Of a DNA stretch of 64,000 nt, positions 28,178 to 41,524 are shown in pieces. This stretch comes from Methanobacteriota archaeon (lineage in GTDB: Archaea; Thermoplasmatota; Thermoplasmata; SG8-5; DAIRED01): the NCBI GenBank assembly GCA_043799545.1, contig JAZDNO010000030.1, forward strand, positions 24,101-88,100, in the 5' to 3' direction. The translations under genes were made by a program, and so were the position numbers. The notes beneath the pieces are model-generated. The model ran no database searches and was not told the DNA's origin. It saw only the letters and a list, made by a program, of their open reading frames with translations. Every line of letters starts with the position of its first letter. Position 1 is the stretch's first letter.

Positions 28178-28528
28178 ATGGAAGCGGATGTGTTGAAGGC
28201 GGAGATTGTCGAAACGGGGAAGGAAGGCAATACAAGGCTGGTGGACACAGACCGCCTGGGGCAGTCGTTCATGCTCCTCGGGGCAATCGTGCTCTTCATC
28301 CACCTTTCGCTCACTGTCCTGTCGCTTGCGGTTCCGGCAGAATCGAGCTGGATGGTTTTCAACATGTGGGGCATCAACAGGTTCGTTTCCGTCACAGTCG
28401 TTTGCTGCGTGATTATCGCCATAGGGTGGATGCTCTGCAGGAAGGCCGGATGCTCTTTTCTAGGGGACGAGCCTCAGCCTGTCCCTGGGGAAAAGAACGC
28501 ACTCCCTGATGTTCGGGAGCCCCAGTAG
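28178..28528 (+). CDS. Possible small two-TM membrane protein
   Basis: Two hydrophobic segments; overlaps the aspS 3' end by 69 nt on the opposite strand; no family recognised. Confidence 0.35.
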   Translation: MEADVLKAEIVETGKEGNTRLVDTDRLGQSFMLLGAIVLFIHLSLTVLSLAVPAESSWMVFNMWGINRFVSVTVVCCVIIAIGWMLCRKAGCSFLGDEPQPVPGEKNALPDVREPQ

Positions 28529-29791
28529 CTTGTGGACGAACCTCTCGATTCCCAGGCCGAAGCCGCCGTGCGGCGGCATGCCGAAGCGGAACGCCTTGAG
28601 GTAGAACTCGAAAGCGGCTGGGTCCATGCCGTTCTCCGCCATCTGGCTCAGCAGGACGTCCAGGCGGTGCTCGCGCTGGCCTCCCGAGACCAGCTCTTCT
28701 CCGTCGTATTCGAGGTCGAAGTATCCCGTCAGCCCGGGGTTCTCCGGTTTCCTCATCGCGTAGAACGTCGTCCGCTTCAGCTCGGTCGGGAAATCTGTGA
28801 TGAAGAAGAACTGGTGGTTCGTCTCTTTCTTCACTATCTCTCCCAGGACCTTTTCGCCAGTGGTGTCGATGTCGTTGTTTGCGGGGACGGGGTGGCCCGC
28901 CGCGCGGAGCATCTCGGCGCACTTGGCGTGCGGGATGCGCGGGAATGGCAAGGCGGGCTTCTCCAGCTTGATGCCGAGCAGTTCCAAATCCTTTGCGCAT
29001 CCCTCGATAACGCGCCCAATCCCGGCGGCCACGAGCCCCTCCAGGAATTTCATCACGTCCTCTGAGGAATCGATGAACGCCATCTCAACGTCCAGCGAGG
29101 TGAATTCCGAGAGGTGGCGCACGGTGTCGCTCGCCTCCGCCCGGAACGCCGGGGCGATTTCGTAAATCCTGTCGAGCCCGGTGGACATCAGGCTCTGCTT
29201 GTACAGCTGCGGGCTCTGGGCCAGGTAGGCCTTCTTGTCGAAGTAGGTGATGGGGAAAAGGGTCGCGCCGCCCTCGGCCCCGGCAGCCACGATTTTAGGT
29301 GTGTGAACTTCGACGAACCTCTGCGAAGCGAAGTGCTCCCGCAACCCTTCCAGCAGGACGGAGCGGATGCGGAACACCGCGCGGACCTCATCCTTGCGCA
29401 GGTCCATGAACCTGGCGTTGAGGCGCGTGTCCAGGTCGACGTTGACCTTGTCTATGACGCCGAGAGGCAGCGGGGCCTCCGCCGGGCTGATGAGGGTCCA
29501 GCTATCGGGCAGGAGCTCGACGCCGGCCTTGGCCTCCTTGTTGGCCTTCAGGGAGCCGGTGAAAGAGACGACGCTTTCGCGCATCACGCCGGACATTTCC
29601 TTGAACGGCTCCGGGCCGAGCTTCTTCTTCAGGAGCGTGACCTGGACGATGCCGGCCGAATCGCGCAGCTGGACGAAGGCTATGCCTCCGAGGTTGCGCA
29701 CGTCCTGCACCCACCCGGCGACCGTGACGTTCTGCCCGTCCAGCGCTGGACCGAGTTCCGAGGCCATCTTTCTCGATGAGAGCTGCGCCAT
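28460..29791 (-). CDS. aspS: Archaeal aspartyl-tRNA synthetase
   Basis: OB-fold N-terminus, LAQSPQLYKQ, FRAE, PPHGGFGLGIER. Confidence 0.97.
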   Translation of the reverse strand: MAQLSSRKMASELGPALDGQNVTVAGWVQDVRNLGGIAFVQLRDSAGIVQVTLLKKKLGPEPFKEMSGVMRESVVSFTGSLKANKEAKAGVELLPDSWTLISPAEAPLPLGVIDKVNVDLDTRLNARFMDLRKDEVRAVFRIRSVLLEGLREHFASQRFVEVHTPKIVAAGAEGGATLFPITYFDKKAYLAQSPQLYKQSLMSTGLDRIYEIAPAFRAEASDTVRHLSEFTSLDVEMAFIDSSEDVMKFLEGLVAAGIGRVIEGCAKDLELLGIKLEKPALPFPRIPHAKCAEMLRAAGHPVPANNDIDTTGEKVLGEIVKKETNHQFFFITDFPTELKRTTFYAMRKPENPGLTGYFDLEYDGEELVSGGQREHRLDVLLSQMAENGMDPAAFEFYLKAFRFGMPPHGGFGLGIERFVHKLLGLPNIRECVLFPRDRLRLVP

Positions 29792-29868
29792 GAGTCCTGG
29801 GATTGCTCCGGGCTATAAAAATGTGAGTGGTGAAACGATAAATAACCGAAACGCCTAGAGACGTTGAA

Positions 29869-31197
29869 ATGAAAGTGCTGCTGGTGTACCCGCCGTTCTG
29901 CGCCCCCACGGTGCCTCCTTACTCGATAACATATCTTCAGTCGTTCTTGTCCGCGAATTCCGACGTGGATGTAAAATGCATCGATTTGAACGCGAAATTC
30001 CATATGTGTAGAATGGCATCCTTGTACAACGGCCTGGAAAAAGCGAAAAGGAATTTAAAATCATATTCCGAACTGCTTGAAAAGTACTCCAGCAAGGCAA
30101 AGAAGGTTCACAGGGAAAACATCGTGAAAATATCCGAGGGAGCAGCGCCCGAACTATTCAAGGAGCTGGCTGGGCTGCTTCTGAAAGAAAAGCCCGATGT
30201 GGTCGGGTTCAGCATCGTTTACAACAGCCAAATATTCTACAGCCTGTCGCTCATCGAGAAGCTCACCGATAATGGAATTACTTGCGTGGCCGGCGGCCCC
30301 GCCGCGAGCCAACTTGTTCGAGAGCGGGTGAAGGTGCTGGATGACGAGGTCGCGCTCCTGAGATTCCTGACCAAAAAGGAAAAATGCAAGGCACCCCGCG
30401 CTCTGGATTTCAGCCACTACCCGGAAGAAGACTATCTTTCAAAAGAGATGATATACCCCATCAGAAGCTCGTATGGCTGCTTCTACCGGGCATGCGCTTT
30501 CTGCACCCATCACGGCAACGTTGCCTACAGGGAAATCGATGTGAAAGAAATCAAAAAGTCTATTCTTAAAAACAGGATGAAAAACATTTTCTTCATCGAT
30601 GACACGATTCCTGCGAGAAGACTTTCCGAGCTCGCGGACATGCTCAAGCCGCTTAAAGTACGGTGGTGGTGCCAAACCCGGCCCACGCAAGACCTGCTCG
30701 GGCTTTTCAACAAGCTGAGGGAAACCGGGCTGGTGGCAATCTCTTTCGGCGCCGAGTCAGGAAACCAGAGGATGCTGGACCTGATGAGAAAAGGCACGAG
30801 AGTGGATGACGTCAAAAAAGTACTCTCTGAGAGCCACAATGCCGGCATAAAAAACATAGTTTTCATAATGTTCGGATTTCCGGGAGAAGACGAATCCTCT
30901 TTCATCGACACGGTGAATTTCCTCAGGGACAACCGCGGGAACCTCGACATCGTATCGGCTTCCATGTTCGGCCTGCAGAAAGGAAGCTGCGTCTTTGACA
31001 ATCCAGGCGAGTTCGGGGTGTTCGACATTATGGAACATGGCGCGCCGCTTGGCGAAATCATCCGGTTTGAGGTCAGAAACGGGCTCGGTGAAAAACAGGC
31101 AAAGGCAATGAAAGAAAATGTTGCGAAGGAGCTGAGGGCGATGAACAAGCTTCCCAAGATATTCTGCCTGTTGAAAGAACAGAGTTTGTTTTTTTAG
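29869..31197 (+). CDS. B12-binding-domain radical SAM protein
   Basis: N-terminal PDVVGFS/GGP cobalamin-type domain; GCFYRACAFC; FFIDDT; GAESG. Confidence 0.85.
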   Translation: MKVLLVYPPFCAPTVPPYSITYLQSFLSANSDVDVKCIDLNAKFHMCRMASLYNGLEKAKRNLKSYSELLEKYSSKAKKVHRENIVKISEGAAPELFKELAGLLLKEKPDVVGFSIVYNSQIFYSLSLIEKLTDNGITCVAGGPAASQLVRERVKVLDDEVALLRFLTKKEKCKAPRALDFSHYPEEDYLSKEMIYPIRSSYGCFYRACAFCTHHGNVAYREIDVKEIKKSILKNRMKNIFFIDDTIPARRLSELADMLKPLKVRWWCQTRPTQDLLGLFNKLRETGLVAISFGAESGNQRMLDLMRKGTRVDDVKKVLSESHNAGIKNIVFIMFGFPGEDESSFIDTVNFLRDNRGNLDIVSASMFGLQKGSCVFDNPGEFGVFDIMEHGAPLGEIIRFEVRNGLGEKQAKAMKENVAKELRAMNKLPKIFCLLKEQSLFF

Positions 31198-31287
31198 CTT
31201 TCAAACCCATTCTTGCGGAGTTCCTCGCAGGAGGCCGAAATCAAAGCCCCGACGTTCAGTTATGCTCCGCCAGAGAAGCTAGGAATC

Positions 31288-31298
31288 AAAAAGAAAAA
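31288..31298 (-). terminator. Oligo-T terminator of the C/D sRNA
   Basis: TTTTTCTTTTT directly after the 3' arm of the terminal stem. Confidence 0.6.
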
Positions 31299-31428
31299 CC
31301 TGCGTCCTCAGCACTCATGGGGTCAATCATCCGGCCTTAGCCCGCGAACCGAAGTCCGCAGCGTGGTTCCAGACCTTCGGGGTCGAAACCGCCGTCATCT
31401 GACCCTCTTGTCATCACAGAACAAAGGC
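31298..31428 (-). ncRNA. Box C/D guide sRNA with structured internal insert (predicted targets tRNA-Met C34 and 23S C1920)
   Basis: Box C GTGATGA (31411-31417), D' ATGA (31395-31398), C' GGATGA (31327-31332), D CTGA (31308-31311); terminal stem GCCTTTGTTC/GGACGCAGGT; TATA-like TTTTATTA (31445-31452); oligo-T terminator. Confidence 0.75.
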
Positions 31429-31517
31429 GTATCCGCGCACAAGATAATAAAATGCACCTTTCCGAGTAGTGGTAATGTTTATCTACACCTGCTCACCTAC
31501 GCCACAATGGTGGAACC

Positions 31518-31736
31518 TTGTTCCGCGACATCATTGGGTTCGCGTCCGACGACCCGGCATATTCGATCGCGCAGTTCAGGGCCGACATTAGTCAGTCGAC
31601 GGCAGTCGTCGAGACGTTCGACGCCGCTGCGGTGCCATACCTGACCAGCATCATGAACGCGGGCGACTTCTTCTTCCCGGGCCGGGGATACTGGGTCTGG
31701 GTCCCGACGGACGTCGTGTGGGACAAGCCCTTCTGA
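31518..31736 (+). pseudogene. Orphan C-terminal fragment of a surface protein (GWNL...GYW module)
   Basis: IIGFAS...VETFDAAAVPY...FFPGRGYWVWVPTDVVW aligns with the last repeat of 53140-54381 (LVGYPS...VESFDPAELY...LTPGYGYWMHVSADTVW); in-frame stop at 31473; WNLV sits just upstream in another frame. Confidence 0.55.
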
Positions 31737-31789
31737 TGGCCAATAAAATATATATATAGTCGGACATATAGCTCGCCCGAGGACAGGAC

Positions 31790-34211
31790 ATGCAGATTCC
31801 CAGCGGCAAGATATTGGCGACGTCTTTCGGAGGGCCCAAGGCGTTCGCGGAGGCCTTTGCCAGGATGAGCTCGGAATCTCTGGACGGGTTCGTGAGGACC
31901 TCGCTGGCGAGCAGGAAGGGTTACGCGATTGGAACGCTGGTCTTCAAGGGTGGCAGGGCCATCCTGGTCGCGCACAAGACAGCCGGGCATGAAACCCTAG
32001 GCGACGATGCCGTCCCGCTCGTGGCAGCAGATTCTCTCTCCGAGGATTGCGTCATGGAGATTCACACTTACGGCTTCAAATCATCCAGCATCAGCGTAGG
32101 GCACCTCGAGACCCGGTTTTCCGACGCCGCAGTCACCTACGACATCGACCCTGCGGAGGAGGTCAGGGGCGCGGAAAAGGCCACGAGCGAGGAGGCCGAG
32201 AAGTCCCGGAGCGCCGCCTCGATAGACCGTATGCGCGACGCGGGAATCGAATCCAGGGAGCGCGAGCTGGCCGAGAAGAAGCGACTGCTCGACGAAGAGC
32301 GCCAGCGTTCAGCCGAGCGCGAGGGCTCCATAGAGCGGTTGAGGCAGGAGCTCGACTCCGTAAAAGCGGGAAGCGTCTCTCTTTTCAAGCATTTCACAGA
32401 AGACCGAAAGGGGCTCACCCAGCAGGACGTCCTCGCTCTCGCGGACAAGCGCGTGGAGGAGATGCGCCTCGACTCGAAGCGCGAAGAGCTCGACAAGCGC
32501 GAGAAGGTGTTGAAATCCGAGGAGGCCACCCTGAGGGAGCTGGAAGGCCAGCTGTCTGCCAAGGACGGCTCGATGCGCGAGCGAGAGGCCTCCATCCGAA
32601 CCGAGGAGAGCGCACTGGCCAGGGAGCGCGCCGAACTCGCAGAGCTATGGAAGCGCATAGGCCAGGAGACGGAGAAGCACAAGTCTTCCGAGGAGGAGCT
32701 GGAGCGCAGGCTCGAGGAGTACCTCGTCAAGGAGCGGAAGCTGCTGAAGCTCGAGGACGGCCTGGAATCCCGCGAGGCCGAGATGAAGTCCGCGCAGGCG
32801 AGCCTGGAGAAGGGAGCCAAAGCCCTCGAGGCGAAACTGGATGACGTTTCAAAGCGCGATGCCAAATTGACTGAGCGCGAGAAGGCGCAGACTGACGGCG
32901 AGCGCCAGGCCAAGGCAAAGGCCAAGGAGCTGGCGAAACTCGAAACATCATTGAAGAAGGAGTCGGACGCGGTCGAAAGGGAGAAGCGCCGCGCAGCTTC
33001 CGAGCTGGCCGAGCTGAACGCCCTCAAATCCGAGCTCGAGAAGGGCCGCGAGCGGCTGGAGGCGGACGAGTCGTCTCTTGCGGAGGAGCGAGACTCAGTT
33101 GCGGAGAAAGGCAGGGAATTGAAGGAGCGCGAGGAGAGCATCGGGGAGCTCCAGGCGGCGATGGCGTCGGAGAAGGCCGCGCTGAAGTCCATGTCGAAGG
33201 ACATCGCCAAGCAGGCCAAGGCCATAGAATCCGAGAGGCGCTCGCTGGACGACTGGCGCGCCGAGATGGACAAGGCCGAGGCCGTGGCGGAGAAGCTCAA
33301 GCGCGAGATGGCGCACCGGGAGAAGGGACTGAAGAAGGCCGAGAAGTCCGCAGAGAAGGCGGAAGAGAGGCTGGCCGCGGAGATGGAAACCGTAGCGAAG
33401 CTCCAGGAGGAGCTCGGCGCGAAGGCCCAGAGCCTATCCGACCGCGAGGAGGACCTGAAGGACCGGGAGGAGCAGGCCGCCTTGCGCGAAAAGGAGCTCG
33501 ACGATTCGATTTCGAAAGCCAAAACGTCAATCGCCAAGGACAAGTCGAAGCTGGCGGAGCAGCTCAAGGAGCTGGCTTCTCGCGAGGACGCGCTGTCGGA
33601 CGGCGAGGACGCGCTCGAGAAGCGCGCGGGAGAACTGAACGCGAGGGAGAAGTCCCTCTCGTCCGAGGCCGCGGCCAACGAGGCGAAGGCGTCGGAGCTG
33701 GCGGCCCGGAGCGAAGAGCTCGACGAGCGCGCGGAGTCGCTGGACGCTCGTGAGAAGGAGTCTGAGGCGTCGGCGGCGCGGAGGGAGCAGCAGTTCGCGG
33801 AGCGCAAGGAGGACCTGGACAAGCGGTCCAAGGAGCTGGCTTCCGCGCAGCGCAAGGCCCAGTCCGAGCTGAAGAAGCTCCAGGAGAAGGAGTCGCAGCT
33901 GGCGGCGAAGGAAACCGGCGTGAAGAAGGAGTTCGCGGCCGTACTCAGGGAGCGCGAGGAAATTGACGGGGCGCGGGCCGAGCTCGACGAGCGAGAGACC
34001 CAGTTGAAGGACGCCCCAGGACAAGCTCAAGGCGCGCGAATGGCAGCTCGAGAAGATGGAGAAGGAAATCCGCGTCGAGGCCGAGGGGAAGCTCGCGGAG
34101 CGCGCGAGGGAGCTCGACGAGCGCGAGGAAGCCATCGAGAAGGCGGAGAGCGCGTACAAGAAGCGCCAGAGCGACCTGGCGAAGCTGCGGGAAGGGCTAA
34201 AGGGATTGTAA
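31790..34211 (+). CDS. Long coiled-coil protein with globular N-terminal domain; apparent +1 frameshift at 34014-34017
   Basis: About 700 aa of E/K/R/L/A heptads; removing one C from GACGCCCCAGGAC restores ...DAQDKLKAREWQLEKMEKE...REGLKGL* ending at TAA 34209-34211. Confidence 0.8.
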
Positions 34212-34307
34212 CAGTCTGGGCTTCGCAAGAGCCCGGGGTCAGGCGGCTCCCGGGATACGTATAAATATTGACTCAAACGTTGACGGGCAAGCGCGCGGGG
34301 ATTTGAA

Positions 34308-38673: not shown

Positions 38674-41385
38674 CTATTGGCGCTTTTTGCGGAAAATGAA
38701 GGAGGCGATTGTCACTCCCACGGCAATAACACCGATGACGCCCAGGATAACTGGAATGTTAGTCTCAAACGAGCAACAAGGTGCCGAAACATCAGCGGAG
38801 CCGTTCAATAATAGAATCACCACAGAGCAATCACCTGAATCAGCAAAGCTTGGATGTCTTACTGATATTTCAATTCTGATATCCTCACTCTCGACGACTT
38901 TATTCGGAGCCGTCAAAGTCAGAATGGTTTTGCCATCGATGTCTGTCGTTGTGTTCCCATCTATAGCGATACCCTCATCGGATGTTTGCGCCTCGATGGT
39001 CGCACCAGCGATAGGCAAACCATCCTGGTCTCGCACGGTCACGGTCATGGGCGCGGTATCACCAGGGTCGAGGACATCGGGCTCGACAACGGCTCGCACC
39101 CTGAGGAATTTCGTGTCATCCGGTTTGACCGTGACGATGACAACTTTCGATGGAGCGGGGTTATAATTCATATCGCCAGTTATTTTTGTCGCTCCTAGCA
39201 AGCATATATCCACCTTCATGTCGCTAGTCGCGTTCGCTGCTACATGGGGCGCAGTCCATGATGTCACAACTTTGCCATTCGAAAGCGTTGTAGAGTTGTA
39301 TGTCCTCAATCCATTAGCGAATGTGCCATCGGTACAAGCGAGCTCGACGCGAGCACCCTCGATGATGGTTCCCCACTGGTCGGTTACTGAGACACTTATT
39401 TCTGAAATACCCTCAGACAGGACTGGAGATTCCACGGATAGGGATGCCCGCAAGCCTGGACAGGTATGCGGATATATCCCGATTAGCGACCTCCAAGAGA
39501 ATATCGAGCCAGATGGTCCGACGCTCCAGTTTAGAAACCTATCCGAGTTGTATGCCTCGATGCTGGTCTTAGAATAGAGGGCGCTTATTGGCTGGTCGTA
39601 TACGATGGATGCTTGGCAGTCCTTTATGGCTTTCTGGCGTTCTTGGATTTTCGGGGCGGAGCGCGCTTTTTCGATCAACGAGTCGCAGCTGCTGTTTTGA
39701 TATCCGGCATAATTTAATCGGGTTCCCGCCATCGAAGAATGGAACATATCGTGCAGATAGGTTGGTGGTTCCGTTTCGAAAACATTGCTCGTAATTGCCA
39801 TCTCGAAGCTCGACGATTGTATTCTGTCGACGACAGCAGAGAAGTCGATGGGATTGGACTCAGCATTGATACCAATTTGCTGCAATGATGTTGATATCAT
39901 AATTCCAGCTTGTGCCAATATGGGGTCATAGTCCGCTGGAGGTGTCAAGATTCCAATGCGACCATCGTCTCCCGATCCGATAGGCGTCCCATCCGGATTC
40001 TTCCACCAATTTCCCTTGCCAGCTGGCTTAGTGGGGTCGGTAAGTTTGTAACCCGCATCTGCAAGGATGCGAACCGCCTCGTCTGGACCGTATCCGAACT
40101 GTGGCAGGGAGTTGTTGTACCATGCTGTGTCGATAGGGCTGACTGGTCCGTCCGCGGCTATCCCGAAGCCTTGGAGCAATCGTTCGACAATCACTTTTTT
40201 ATTGATACATTGCGTAACAGCTTCCCGCAGCGGCTTACCATAATCGCCTTGCAGCGGATCGTTGTCTGGGTATCCGAACGATTTCTTCCTCATGTTGAAA
40301 GCGAGGTACGTGAACCCTCTTTCGCTCGCCTGGGTTAGACAGATGTCTTCGTTATTGATGAGGTCTGGCACATATGTTGGCGGCAGCGACCAATGAAGGT
40401 AGTCCAAGTTATCGTACCATCGACCAGCCAGGTATCCCGTGCTTCCCATATTCTTGAAATAGACTCCATCTATGGAGGTGCGGAGTTTGGAAAAATGCTC
40501 GCGCCAAGTGGATATCTTGAAATCCACACCTGGGGTCCTATTCTCGAATTTGAACGCCCCCGAGCCGACAGATGTCGGATTCTCATAAACGAATGCCTTC
40601 GATTTGTTCCACGCATTGGCATCGCCGGGTGGGAGCATAGGGTCGGTAGAATCGGTCAGCTGGCCGCTGACCTTTGTGCCCCATATGTGCTTGGGTAAAA
40701 TCATTGGAGACAGTGTTTCATTGACGAAATTATAGAATGGTACCTGGATGTAGAATCGGAGCGAAGTATCGGAAAGCTTCTTGATGCCAAGCCAATGCGT
40801 CGCGGTATAGTTGCTCGTTCCATTTCCGCCATCGTCTTTCAGGCACAGCATAAAGGACGACCATTTCGCCACCTGCGCTGCAACGCCGTAGGAAAAGAGC
40901 ATGTCGTCAATGTCCATCTGGTGCCCGTCGTGGAACTTGACTCCGGTGAATTTGTAATGAACCGTCATCTGCCCTGCGATAGCGAGCGGTTCCCAATCGC
41001 TTTTATTATCCTGGTTGAATAGCGAATCTGACGTACAGTTCGCGGAGCTCACAGCGATGTAGGGAACAGGCTCCCCGGAAATGACATCCCGGTAGACTGG
41101 CGAATCGTATAACCATCGAATCGCATCCCAAGTCCAGATGTCGTTGGCTGCGATTGGATTCAGGGTTTTGACATCTTCGAGCATGCCGACCCGAAGGTAA
41201 ATTGGAACATCCCCAATTTGAGCCGCGCCGGGGGAAAATGCGAGGGGGCTGGACAGAAACATCACCGCAACGGCCAGCGCCATCACTGCCTTTTTCCTGG
41301 AACCCTTCATGTCCGGTGAATGGGCTTCAGGATATTTAAACAGATTTGTAAAGCGTTTTGTGAAGCCACTCAGCTCGCCCATCAT
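38674..41385 (-). CDS. Family 5 ABC substrate-binding protein with C-terminal Ig-like domains and TM anchor
   Basis: VKTLNP, FHDGHQMDIDD, VGSGAF, YLAFNMR, invasin-like VTDQ/VRDQDG segments, C-terminal TM plus RKKRQ. Confidence 0.85.
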   Translation of the reverse strand: MMGELSGFTKRFTNLFKYPEAHSPDMKGSRKKAVMALAVAVMFLSSPLAFSPGAAQIGDVPIYLRVGMLEDVKTLNPIAANDIWTWDAIRWLYDSPVYRDVISGEPVPYIAVSSANCTSDSLFNQDNKSDWEPLAIAGQMTVHYKFTGVKFHDGHQMDIDDMLFSYGVAAQVAKWSSFMLCLKDDGGNGTSNYTATHWLGIKKLSDTSLRFYIQVPFYNFVNETLSPMILPKHIWGTKVSGQLTDSTDPMLPPGDANAWNKSKAFVYENPTSVGSGAFKFENRTPGVDFKISTWREHFSKLRTSIDGVYFKNMGSTGYLAGRWYDNLDYLHWSLPPTYVPDLINNEDICLTQASERGFTYLAFNMRKKSFGYPDNDPLQGDYGKPLREAVTQCINKKVIVERLLQGFGIAADGPVSPIDTAWYNNSLPQFGYGPDEAVRILADAGYKLTDPTKPAGKGNWWKNPDGTPIGSGDDGRIGILTPPADYDPILAQAGIMISTSLQQIGINAESNPIDFSAVVDRIQSSSFEMAITSNVFETEPPTYLHDMFHSSMAGTRLNYAGYQNSSCDSLIEKARSAPKIQERQKAIKDCQASIVYDQPISALYSKTSIEAYNSDRFLNWSVGPSGSIFSWRSLIGIYPHTCPGLRASLSVESPVLSEGISEISVSVTDQWGTIIEGARVELACTDGTFANGLRTYNSTTLSNGKVVTSWTAPHVAANATSDMKVDICLLGATKITGDMNYNPAPSKVVIVTVKPDDTKFLRVRAVVEPDVLDPGDTAPMTVTVRDQDGLPIAGATIEAQTSDEGIAIDGNTTTDIDGKTILTLTAPNKVVESEDIRIEISVRHPSFADSGDCSVVILLLNGSADVSAPCCSFETNIPVILGVIGVIAVGVTIASFIFRKKRQ

Positions 41386-41524
41386 TCATCACTTTATCAG
41401 AATGTCAGTGCTCATCATCGTGGCGCTCGCAGATTGCCTTTCGCGGAGATAATGTTTTCGACGTTTATGGTACGGTTCTTGCGACACGCATAAAGATTTC
41501 TATCCGCGAGCCGATGGGGTCCCC

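Follow-up and report, generated by a model that had tools for sequence, protein, structure and literature searches.

A predicted tRNA-Met/23S rRNA methylation guide with a branched expansion of its internal kink-turn stem in an uncultured Thermoplasmata archaeon

Introduction

Does the long, branched insert in a box C/D RNA gene of an uncultured Thermoplasmata archaeon have a function of its own, or is it an expansion that the guide particle tolerates, and which RNAs are addressed by the two guides on either side of it? A tRNA-Met guide, GCCCUAUGAGUG, with the target CACU-Cm-AUAggg was described in haloarchaea, Methanosarcinales, Thermococcales and methanogens by Grosjean et al. (2008; PMC2584109 Additional file 5), and the name sR-tMet was subsequently given to its Haloferax representative (Joardar et al., 2011, RNA Biol 8:782, as cited in PMC4033218). 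Helices 68–71 of 23S rRNA are a hotspot of guide-directed methylation in archaea (PMC4644070). The locus studied here lies in a window of 64,000 nucleotides (the whole stretch of DNA that was analysed), which belongs to contig C29 of the genome that we call G000, a metagenome-assembled genome (MAG) of 2.06 Mb in 31 contigs with 59% GC and 94% completeness. A preliminary description of the window had proposed an unannotated dual-guide box C/D sRNA directed at C34 of elongator tRNA-Met and at C1920 of 23S rRNA, and had suggested that its large insert may carry an extra function. We conclude that the locus probably encodes an independently transcribed box C/D guide RNA of ~130 nt, the Thermoplasmata ortholog of the sR-tMet/sR41 family, in which the insert is a tolerated expansion. 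The guide family is already known; the G000 locus stands out in that its C'/D' kink-turn stem has a branched expansion.

Results

Anatomy of the gene

The elements of the gene are given below in the 5' to 3' order of the RNA, with positions in the window.

31444–31463, minus strand: promoter-like region ~35 nt 5' of the C box, with a purine-rich BRE-like GGAAAGG (31463–31457) and a TATA-like AT-rich octamer AUUUUAUUAU (31453–31444)
31419–31428, minus strand: terminal stem, 5' strand GCCUUUGUUC, stem I of the C/D kink-turn; nine of its ten positions pair with 31298–31307
31411–31418, minus strand: C box, the kink-turn bulge UGU and then GAUGA; reads GUGAUGA at 31417–31411
31399–31410, minus strand: D' guide CAAGAGGGUCAG, 12 nt; positions 2–11 pair with 23S helix 69 UGACCCUCUU and position 5 is G31403
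31395–31398, minus strand: D' box AUGA, of which nucleotide 1 covaries with C' box position 6
31332–31394, minus strand: 63-nt expansion of the C-stem of the C'/D' kink-turn (fold prediction)
31324–31331, minus strand: C'/D' kink-turn bulge GAU (31331–31329) and C' core GAUUG (31328–31324); the C' box is A-UGAUUG (31330–31324)
31312–31323, minus strand: D guide ACCCCAUGAGUG, 12 nt, ending in AUGAGUG; position 5 (G31316) lies opposite C34 and position 8 (C31319) opposite A37
31308–31311, minus strand: D box CUGA
31298–31307, minus strand: terminal stem, 3' strand GGACGCAGG(U), pairing with GCCUUUGUUC
31288–31298, minus strand: T-rich tract UUUUUCUUUUU, likely an archaeal transcription stop

With the exception of the C' box, for which the register had to be corrected (see below), the elements of a dual-guide box C/D sRNA lie on the minus strand where the preliminary description had put them. 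The boxes GUGAUGA and CUGA, the 3-nt bulge UGU and the stem GUUC.../GGAC... make up a kink-turn, and after the correction both spacers (C–D' and C'–D) are 12 nt long. A T-run is found at the equivalent place in the same-genus relative. Genes for fibrillarin (PF01269, 244.2 bits), Nop5 (PF01798, 175.7 bits) and an L7Ae-family protein (PF01248, 95.8 bits) are present in the G000 genome, and we infer that the RNA is transcribed and assembled into an RNP.

A DNA search recovered both guide halves, adjacent to one another, in 21 of 60 relatives ranging from the same genus to the same class, and these together with G000 make up the 22 members of the family alignment. Both guides and all four boxes are retained in the 21 relatives, with exceptions for the D' guide in G004, G015, G012, G018, G046 and G045, and UGAUGA of the C box and CUGA of the D box are invariant (22/22). 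The inner four pairs of the terminal stem are paired in 82–91% of cells, using several pair types, and give a covariation score of 0.442 compared with 0.225 for shuffled alignments (none of 500 shuffles reaching that value) and no more than 0.207 after sliding of the partner columns. Conservation of boxes and stems in relatives had been named beforehand as one of the points on which the identification would stand or fall, and they proved to be conserved. The sRNA and its counterpart in the same-genus relative can be aligned over their whole length, apart from the linker between D' and C', and an AT-rich octamer lies ~35 nt 5' of the C box in most relatives, which fits an independent archaeal promoter. 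Anatomy and conservation together indicate that this is a genuine methylation-guide RNA gene, on the minus strand at ~31298–31428.

The neighbourhood of class II aminoacyl-tRNA synthetase and radical SAM genes is shared with G001/L033 and L155, and the synthetase is also a neighbour in L034 and L038. The synthetase gene, of the Asp/Asn/Lys type, lies downstream of the sRNA across Thermoplasmata (window 28460–31197; L033, L034, L038, L155), with a B12-binding radical SAM gene lying between the two on the opposite strand in the closest relatives. On the other side, an 824-aa ORF (31790–34264, plus strand) and an overlapping 132-aa ORF (31592–31990, minus strand) adjoin the sRNA promoter, neither of them with a Pfam match.

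At curated thresholds no tRNA or Rfam family was found in the window, and the Rfam comparison that the preliminary description had recommended gave no match reaching the gathering score of RF02163 (sR-tMet) or RF01126 (sR41) at the locus. A permissive scan of 31200–31550 (E up to 10) returned only weak C/D-box matches, among them sR41 with just 14.7 bits over the D half, because the insert splits the match. The compact relatives score 47 and 44 bits with sR41, 45.8 bits with sR3 and 39 bits with sR-tMet; they too fall below gathering (sR41 47/54 bits, sR-tMet 39/50 bits), the models being drawn from Pyrococcus and haloarchaea only.

The C' box and the internal kink-turn

In the preliminary description the C' box was read as GGAUGA, followed by a 15-nt D guide. 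This is 3 nt out of register: homology with the 21 relatives places the box at A-UGAUUG (31330–31324), with a spacer of 12 nt between the C' box and box D, as in all 22 members. The register is confirmed by the covariation of nucleotide 1 of the D' box with position 6 of the C' box, which are C-G in 10 members, A-U in eight (including G000, where U31325 of the C' box pairs with A31398 of the D' box), U-A in one, U-G in one and unpaired in two; with 20 of 22 members paired, the covariation score is 0.965 compared with 0.280 for shuffled alignments (0/500 as high). Once the register has been corrected, the earlier statement that the stem closing the insert has no K-turn bulge turns out to be wrong. 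CGGC/GCCG is the canonical stem, GAU (31331–31329) is the standard 3-nt bulge and the sheared G-A pairs are formed by the GA of the D' box and the GA of the C' box, a canonical arrangement, and on this reading the C'/D' motif is a kink-turn of the usual kind.

The D' guide and 23S helix 69

The 23S rRNA gene of G000 is at C30:100323–103173, and its helix 69 contains ...GGUAACUAUGACCCUCUUAAGGUAGCG.... Positions 2–11 of the D' guide are complementary to UGACCCUCUU of this rRNA over ten contiguous Watson–Crick pairs, and position 5 stands opposite the first C of CCC, which we take to be C1920 in the E. coli numbering of helix 69. Complementarity of at least 10 bp in the allowed register on the organism's own rRNAs is reached by 0.5% of shuffled and 1% of random 12-mers. 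The helix 69 sequence on which the preliminary description had relied (AUGACCCUCUUAAGG) was correct for this genome, including the placement of D'+5 on C1920. The 23S half of the guide RNA is intact.

The sequence AAGAGGGUCA is retained in 16 of the 22 aligned members and other D' guides are present in six. In the latter (the six relatives named above) the D' guide has been swapped for other sequences and the tRNA-Met D guide is unchanged, so that the helix-69 guide is the more dispensable half. A dual guide for a tRNA and an rRNA had been thought unusual, but since the combination is kept in the 16 members, G000 included, it is the usual state in this class.

The window also contains a second, compact box C/D sRNA candidate at 41370–41418 (minus strand; 49 nt plus a 5-bp terminal stem), with the order AUGAUGA, 11-nt guide, CUGA, 5-nt K-loop, UGAUGA, 12-nt guide, CUGA. 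Its D guide matches the A-loop region of 23S rRNA, UUCGCCCAUUAA, over 11 bp (two of them G-U) and its D' guide matches another 23S site over 10 bp (again with two G-U).

The D guide and pre-tRNA-Met

The elongator pre-tRNA-Met gene of G000 was located with Infernal and by inspection at C13:21076–21185; it has a 37/38 intron, and its anticodon arm reads UCGGA-CUCAUA and then enters the intron, GGGAUUC.... ARAGORN calls the same interval tRNA-Ser(aga), with a 37-nt intron placed at position 34, although the anticodon is in fact CAU; automated tRNA counts for this MAG would therefore lack elongator tRNA-Met. An intron-containing elongator tRNA-Met gene is found in 48 of the 60 relatives, and the G000 tRNA shares 99% identity with its counterpart in the same-genus relative.

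The proposal that the D guide is of the sR-tMet type, with C34 of elongator tRNA-Met at D+5, is upheld by the register in which it fits its own pre-tRNA, and the suggestion that part of the guide might pair with the intron is also borne out, as positions 9–11 pair with the first three intron bases, GGG. In register and in 11 of 12 bases the G000 D guide agrees with the published alignment of tRNA-Met guides. The target that had been deduced as the complement of the guide was ACUCAUGGGG; the actual pre-tRNA-Met reads ACUCAUAGGG, and the G000 duplex therefore consists of 6 bp, a C-A mismatch at position 8 (A37) and then 3 bp. In the relatives the guide, CCCUAUGAGUG, forms ten contiguous base pairs with its own pre-tRNA-Met, ACUCAUAGGG, in 17 of 19 cases and nine in the other two, and in all 19 the duplex occupies guide positions 2–11, with C34 at position 5, and spans the exon–intron junction. 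Only in G000 is guide position 8 a C rather than a U; the nearest relatives, G001 and L155, have U. The core of the relatives' D guide is identical to the published haloarchaeal, Methanosarcina and Pyrococcus tRNA-Met guides and that of G000 differs by one base. An uninterrupted duplex of at least 9 bp is thus present in 19 of 19 relatives and absent from G000, and where the preliminary description had asked for at least 9–10 nt of complementarity in one guide or the other, the D' guide provides it (10 bp) and the D guide, with its 6 bp, mismatch and 3 bp, does not.

A search of the G000 assembly, which is 94% complete, revealed no second tRNA-Met guide. The interrupted pairing suggests that guiding of Cm34 is probably weakened in the G000 lineage, and in G000 itself it may be lost.

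Four other candidate targets of the D guide were rejected. The only 11-nt exact genomic match, on C28 at the end of a protein gene, is at chance frequency; pre-tRNA-Ser(GGA), with 10 bp including two G-U, is at chance level (~0.3 expected); the CAU tRNA at C12:19769–19842 is Ile2-like by reading of its sequence and offers ~6 bp only; and the CAU tRNA at C24:15642–15709 is initiator-like, with GGGCUCAUAACCC. The last of these comprises the 3' part of an initiator-type tRNA-Met (the GGGCUCAUAACCC anticodon arm, T arm and CCCCGCU acceptor strand; a low Infernal score of 31.6 bits). The expected 5' acceptor and D-arm sequence does not directly precede it, and this may be an interrupted or split gene.

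The 63-nt insert

The insert comprises 63 nt with its closing stem, 55 of them beyond the 4 bp of that stem, and it is predicted to fold as a three-way junction made up of the following parts.

31394–31391 (CGGC) and 31335–31332 (GCCG), minus strand: closing stem, 4 bp
31390–31365, minus strand: arm 1, a bulged 10-bp arm with a CCGAA loop
31364–31362, minus strand: junction ACG (predicted fold)
31361–31342, minus strand: arm 2, 8 bp with a UUCG loop
31341–31336, minus strand: junction GCUAAG (predicted fold)

The closing stem and the two arms, with their CCGAA and UUCG loops, are as first described. The predicted minimum free energy is −28.6 kcal/mol, with a z-score of −1.6 relative to shuffles that is not significant alone and that comes from a single sequence.

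At the insert site the nearest relatives, G001 of the same genus and L155, have a 16-nt hairpin (L155, the one syntenic metagenome contig with the sRNA, likewise lacks the insert), and the G000 linker is 47 nt longer than the relative's. The D'–C' segment differs along the family: G033, G041 and G052 have a 6-nt K-loop, most members have a hairpin of 2–7 bp and in a few the segment is long. Neither an exact 26-mer nor two gapped family patterns gave a match in the public genome and metagenome contigs scanned; an exact look-up of the neighbouring radical SAM protein gave none either, its nearest homologs being only 73% identical. In a scan of one genome for each of 185,579 species, with a long distance from C box to D guide as the criterion, only two other true long members were recovered (82 nt in G021/L214 and 48 nt in L199), in addition to chance bacterial matches. 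G021 (L014/L214, Methanobacteriota archaeon CSMAG_991) has an 82-nt Y-shaped insert with a closing stem and two arms and a z-score of −2.95; L199:2929–3025 (Thermoplasmatota archaeon STD1_48) has a 48-nt irregular hairpin. The 48-, 63- and 82-nt inserts are unrelated in sequence and occupy the same D'–C' site, and as the same-genus relative of G021 has a 20-nt hairpin only, the long expansions arose independently. The Y-shaped inserts of G000 and G021 agree in having two arms on a closing stem, with 6 nt in the 3' junction, and this shared layout could be a hint of selection rather than drift.

Other identities for the insert were considered and rejected. It is single-copy in G000: blastn-short against the whole assembly finds the insert itself and otherwise only chance 12–14-mers, which excludes a repeat, a MITE or a second copy of the gene. 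It is not a bulge-helix-bulge intron, as its flanks form opposed AUGA/GAUGA loops around a 4-bp helix and not two 3-nt bulges on opposite strands. The Rfam scan of 31200–31550 (E up to 10) gave C/D-box families only and so revealed no known RNA family within the insert. The opposite-strand ORF at 31213–31644 is not a likely protein gene since it has no Pfam match and the 47-nt difference from the relative breaks its frame.

Discussion

In the mode of action that we propose, L7Ae would bind the two canonical kink-turns, the terminal C/D and the internal C'/D', and Nop5 and fibrillarin would then assemble on the L7Ae-bound kink-turns. The D' guide would base-pair with helix 69 of 23S rRNA, on its 3' strand, and bring the 2'-OH of C1920 into the fibrillarin site. 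The D guide would anneal to elongator pre-tRNA-Met before splicing, over the junction of A37 and the intron, and so place C34. We regard the 63-nt Y-shaped insert as a C-stem of the C'/D' kink-turn that has grown longer in this lineage. Because the particle has two-fold symmetry, this stem should be the counterpart of the terminal stem and, judging from the published architecture of archaeal C/D particles, should point away from the catalytic core, so that its length would be free to drift. The insert is probably a tolerated, near-neutral expansion that at most stabilizes the kink-turn, and we regard this as the most economical reading because the C-stem, as the symmetry mate of the terminal stem, would project away from the guide–target duplexes.

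It is unlikely that the insert is instead a selected functional module that gave the guide RNA a second activity, either as a docking platform for a protein or RNA or by converting a weak K-loop into a rigid kink-turn. Such a role would suit a compact three-way junction that is closed exactly at the kink-turn and carries a stable UUCG tetraloop, and would also suit the independent 82-nt insert of G021, with its equal overall topology and z-score of −2.95, and the third lineage with its 48-nt hairpin at the same place. However, the insert is missing in both nearest relatives, the three long inserts have no common sequence, the folding energy in G000 is within the range of shuffles, Rfam at E up to 10 yields the C/D boxes only, and no complementarity of at least 15 nt to the insert is found elsewhere in the G000 genome. 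More doubtful still is a broader version in which the internal kink-turn stem is a recurrent graft site for structured domains and the Y-shaped domain has its own job. It might, for example, bring a tRNA-processing or ribosome-assembly factor to the methylation particle or keep that particle on pre-rRNA, and eukaryotic snoRNAs such as U3 or U8, with their accessory domains, would offer a parallel.

Decay of the gene, with an insertion in the internal loop and a mutating tRNA guide leading to a pseudogene or to a single-guide RNA for 23S rRNA only, we consider very improbable. Two derived changes do coincide in the G000 lineage only, namely a linker longer by 47 nt and a U-to-C substitution that interrupts the otherwise universally conserved 10-bp tRNA duplex. 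Yet no damage is seen in any of the four boxes, in either kink-turn stem, in the 12-nt spacers or the D' guide, or in the promoter-like box and the T-run; the closing stem of the insert is perfect and in register with the kink-turn, and no replacement tRNA-Met guide was found in the assembly. That the insert or the guide substitution, or both, should be artefacts of metagenome assembly or consensus calling is scarcely credible, for although the genome is a 31-contig MAG and the insert was recovered in no other public contig scanned, its ends coincide exactly with the D' box and the kink-turn bulge, it forms a closing stem of its own, the assembly contains no second copy from which it could have been spliced, and the flanks align cleanly with the relative on both sides. 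None of these explanations (decay, artefact or functional insert) does better than a tolerated expansion in accounting for boxes, spacers, a closing stem and flanks that are all intact.

With this gene an unannotated RNA is added for an uncultured Thermoplasmata lineage of which little is known. The occurrence of the tRNA-Met wobble guide, familiar from haloarchaea, methanogens and Thermococcales, extends across this class too, usually together with a guide for helix 69 (C1920). The family also provides, at one site, a natural series from K-loop to hairpin-capped kink-turn to expansions of 48–82 nt, some of them branched, and this series marks the C-stem of the C'/D' kink-turn as structurally permissive in archaeal particles. 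The same stem is permissive in eukaryotic snoRNAs. The single-base break in an otherwise invariant guide–tRNA duplex amounts to a natural experiment on the pairing that is needed for guiding of Cm34. Neither the dual guide nor the insert implies a new mechanism.

Among known systems the closest is sR-tMet of Haloferax volcanii with its haloarchaeal and Methanosarcina homologs (RF02163), in which the D guide (G/A)CCCUAUGAGU(G) pairs with CACUCAUAggg of an intron-containing pre-tRNA-Met with C34 at D+5. These RNAs also have a terminal stem, and the D'–C' linker is already extended in the haloarchaeal examples (~20 nt). They differ in that the haloarchaeal D' guides have no complementarity to helix 69 and the haloarchaeal boxes are UGACGA/CCGA, whereas the G000 RNA has a linker that is three times longer and branched and a C, not U, opposite A37. 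Pyrococcus sR41 (RF01126, Thermococcales), the best Rfam match of the compact relatives, shares the D guide core GAGCCCUAUGAGcg followed by CUGA and has an equal target, but is only 53–58 nt long with a 4-nt K-loop and an unrelated D' guide. In bacteria the same mark on the same nucleotide of helix 69, Cm1920, is made by TlyA, a stand-alone protein methyltransferase that is not RNA-guided. Human SNORD97 and SCARNA97, as presented by Vitali and Kiss (2019; PMC6601510), are likewise box C/D RNAs that guide 2'-O-methylation of C34 in elongator tRNA-Met; in that account, however, these eukaryotic RNAs act on a mature-type tRNA with no intron junction and have no rRNA guide. Finally, in the C/D guide within the haloarchaeal pre-tRNA-Trp intron (PMC2584109 Additional file 4) the D'–C' segment is a ~25-nt hairpin and not a K-loop. 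That guide is encoded in an intron and directed at C34 and U39 of tRNA-Trp, with an unbranched hairpin far shorter than the G000 insert, but it shows that helices are tolerated at this site.
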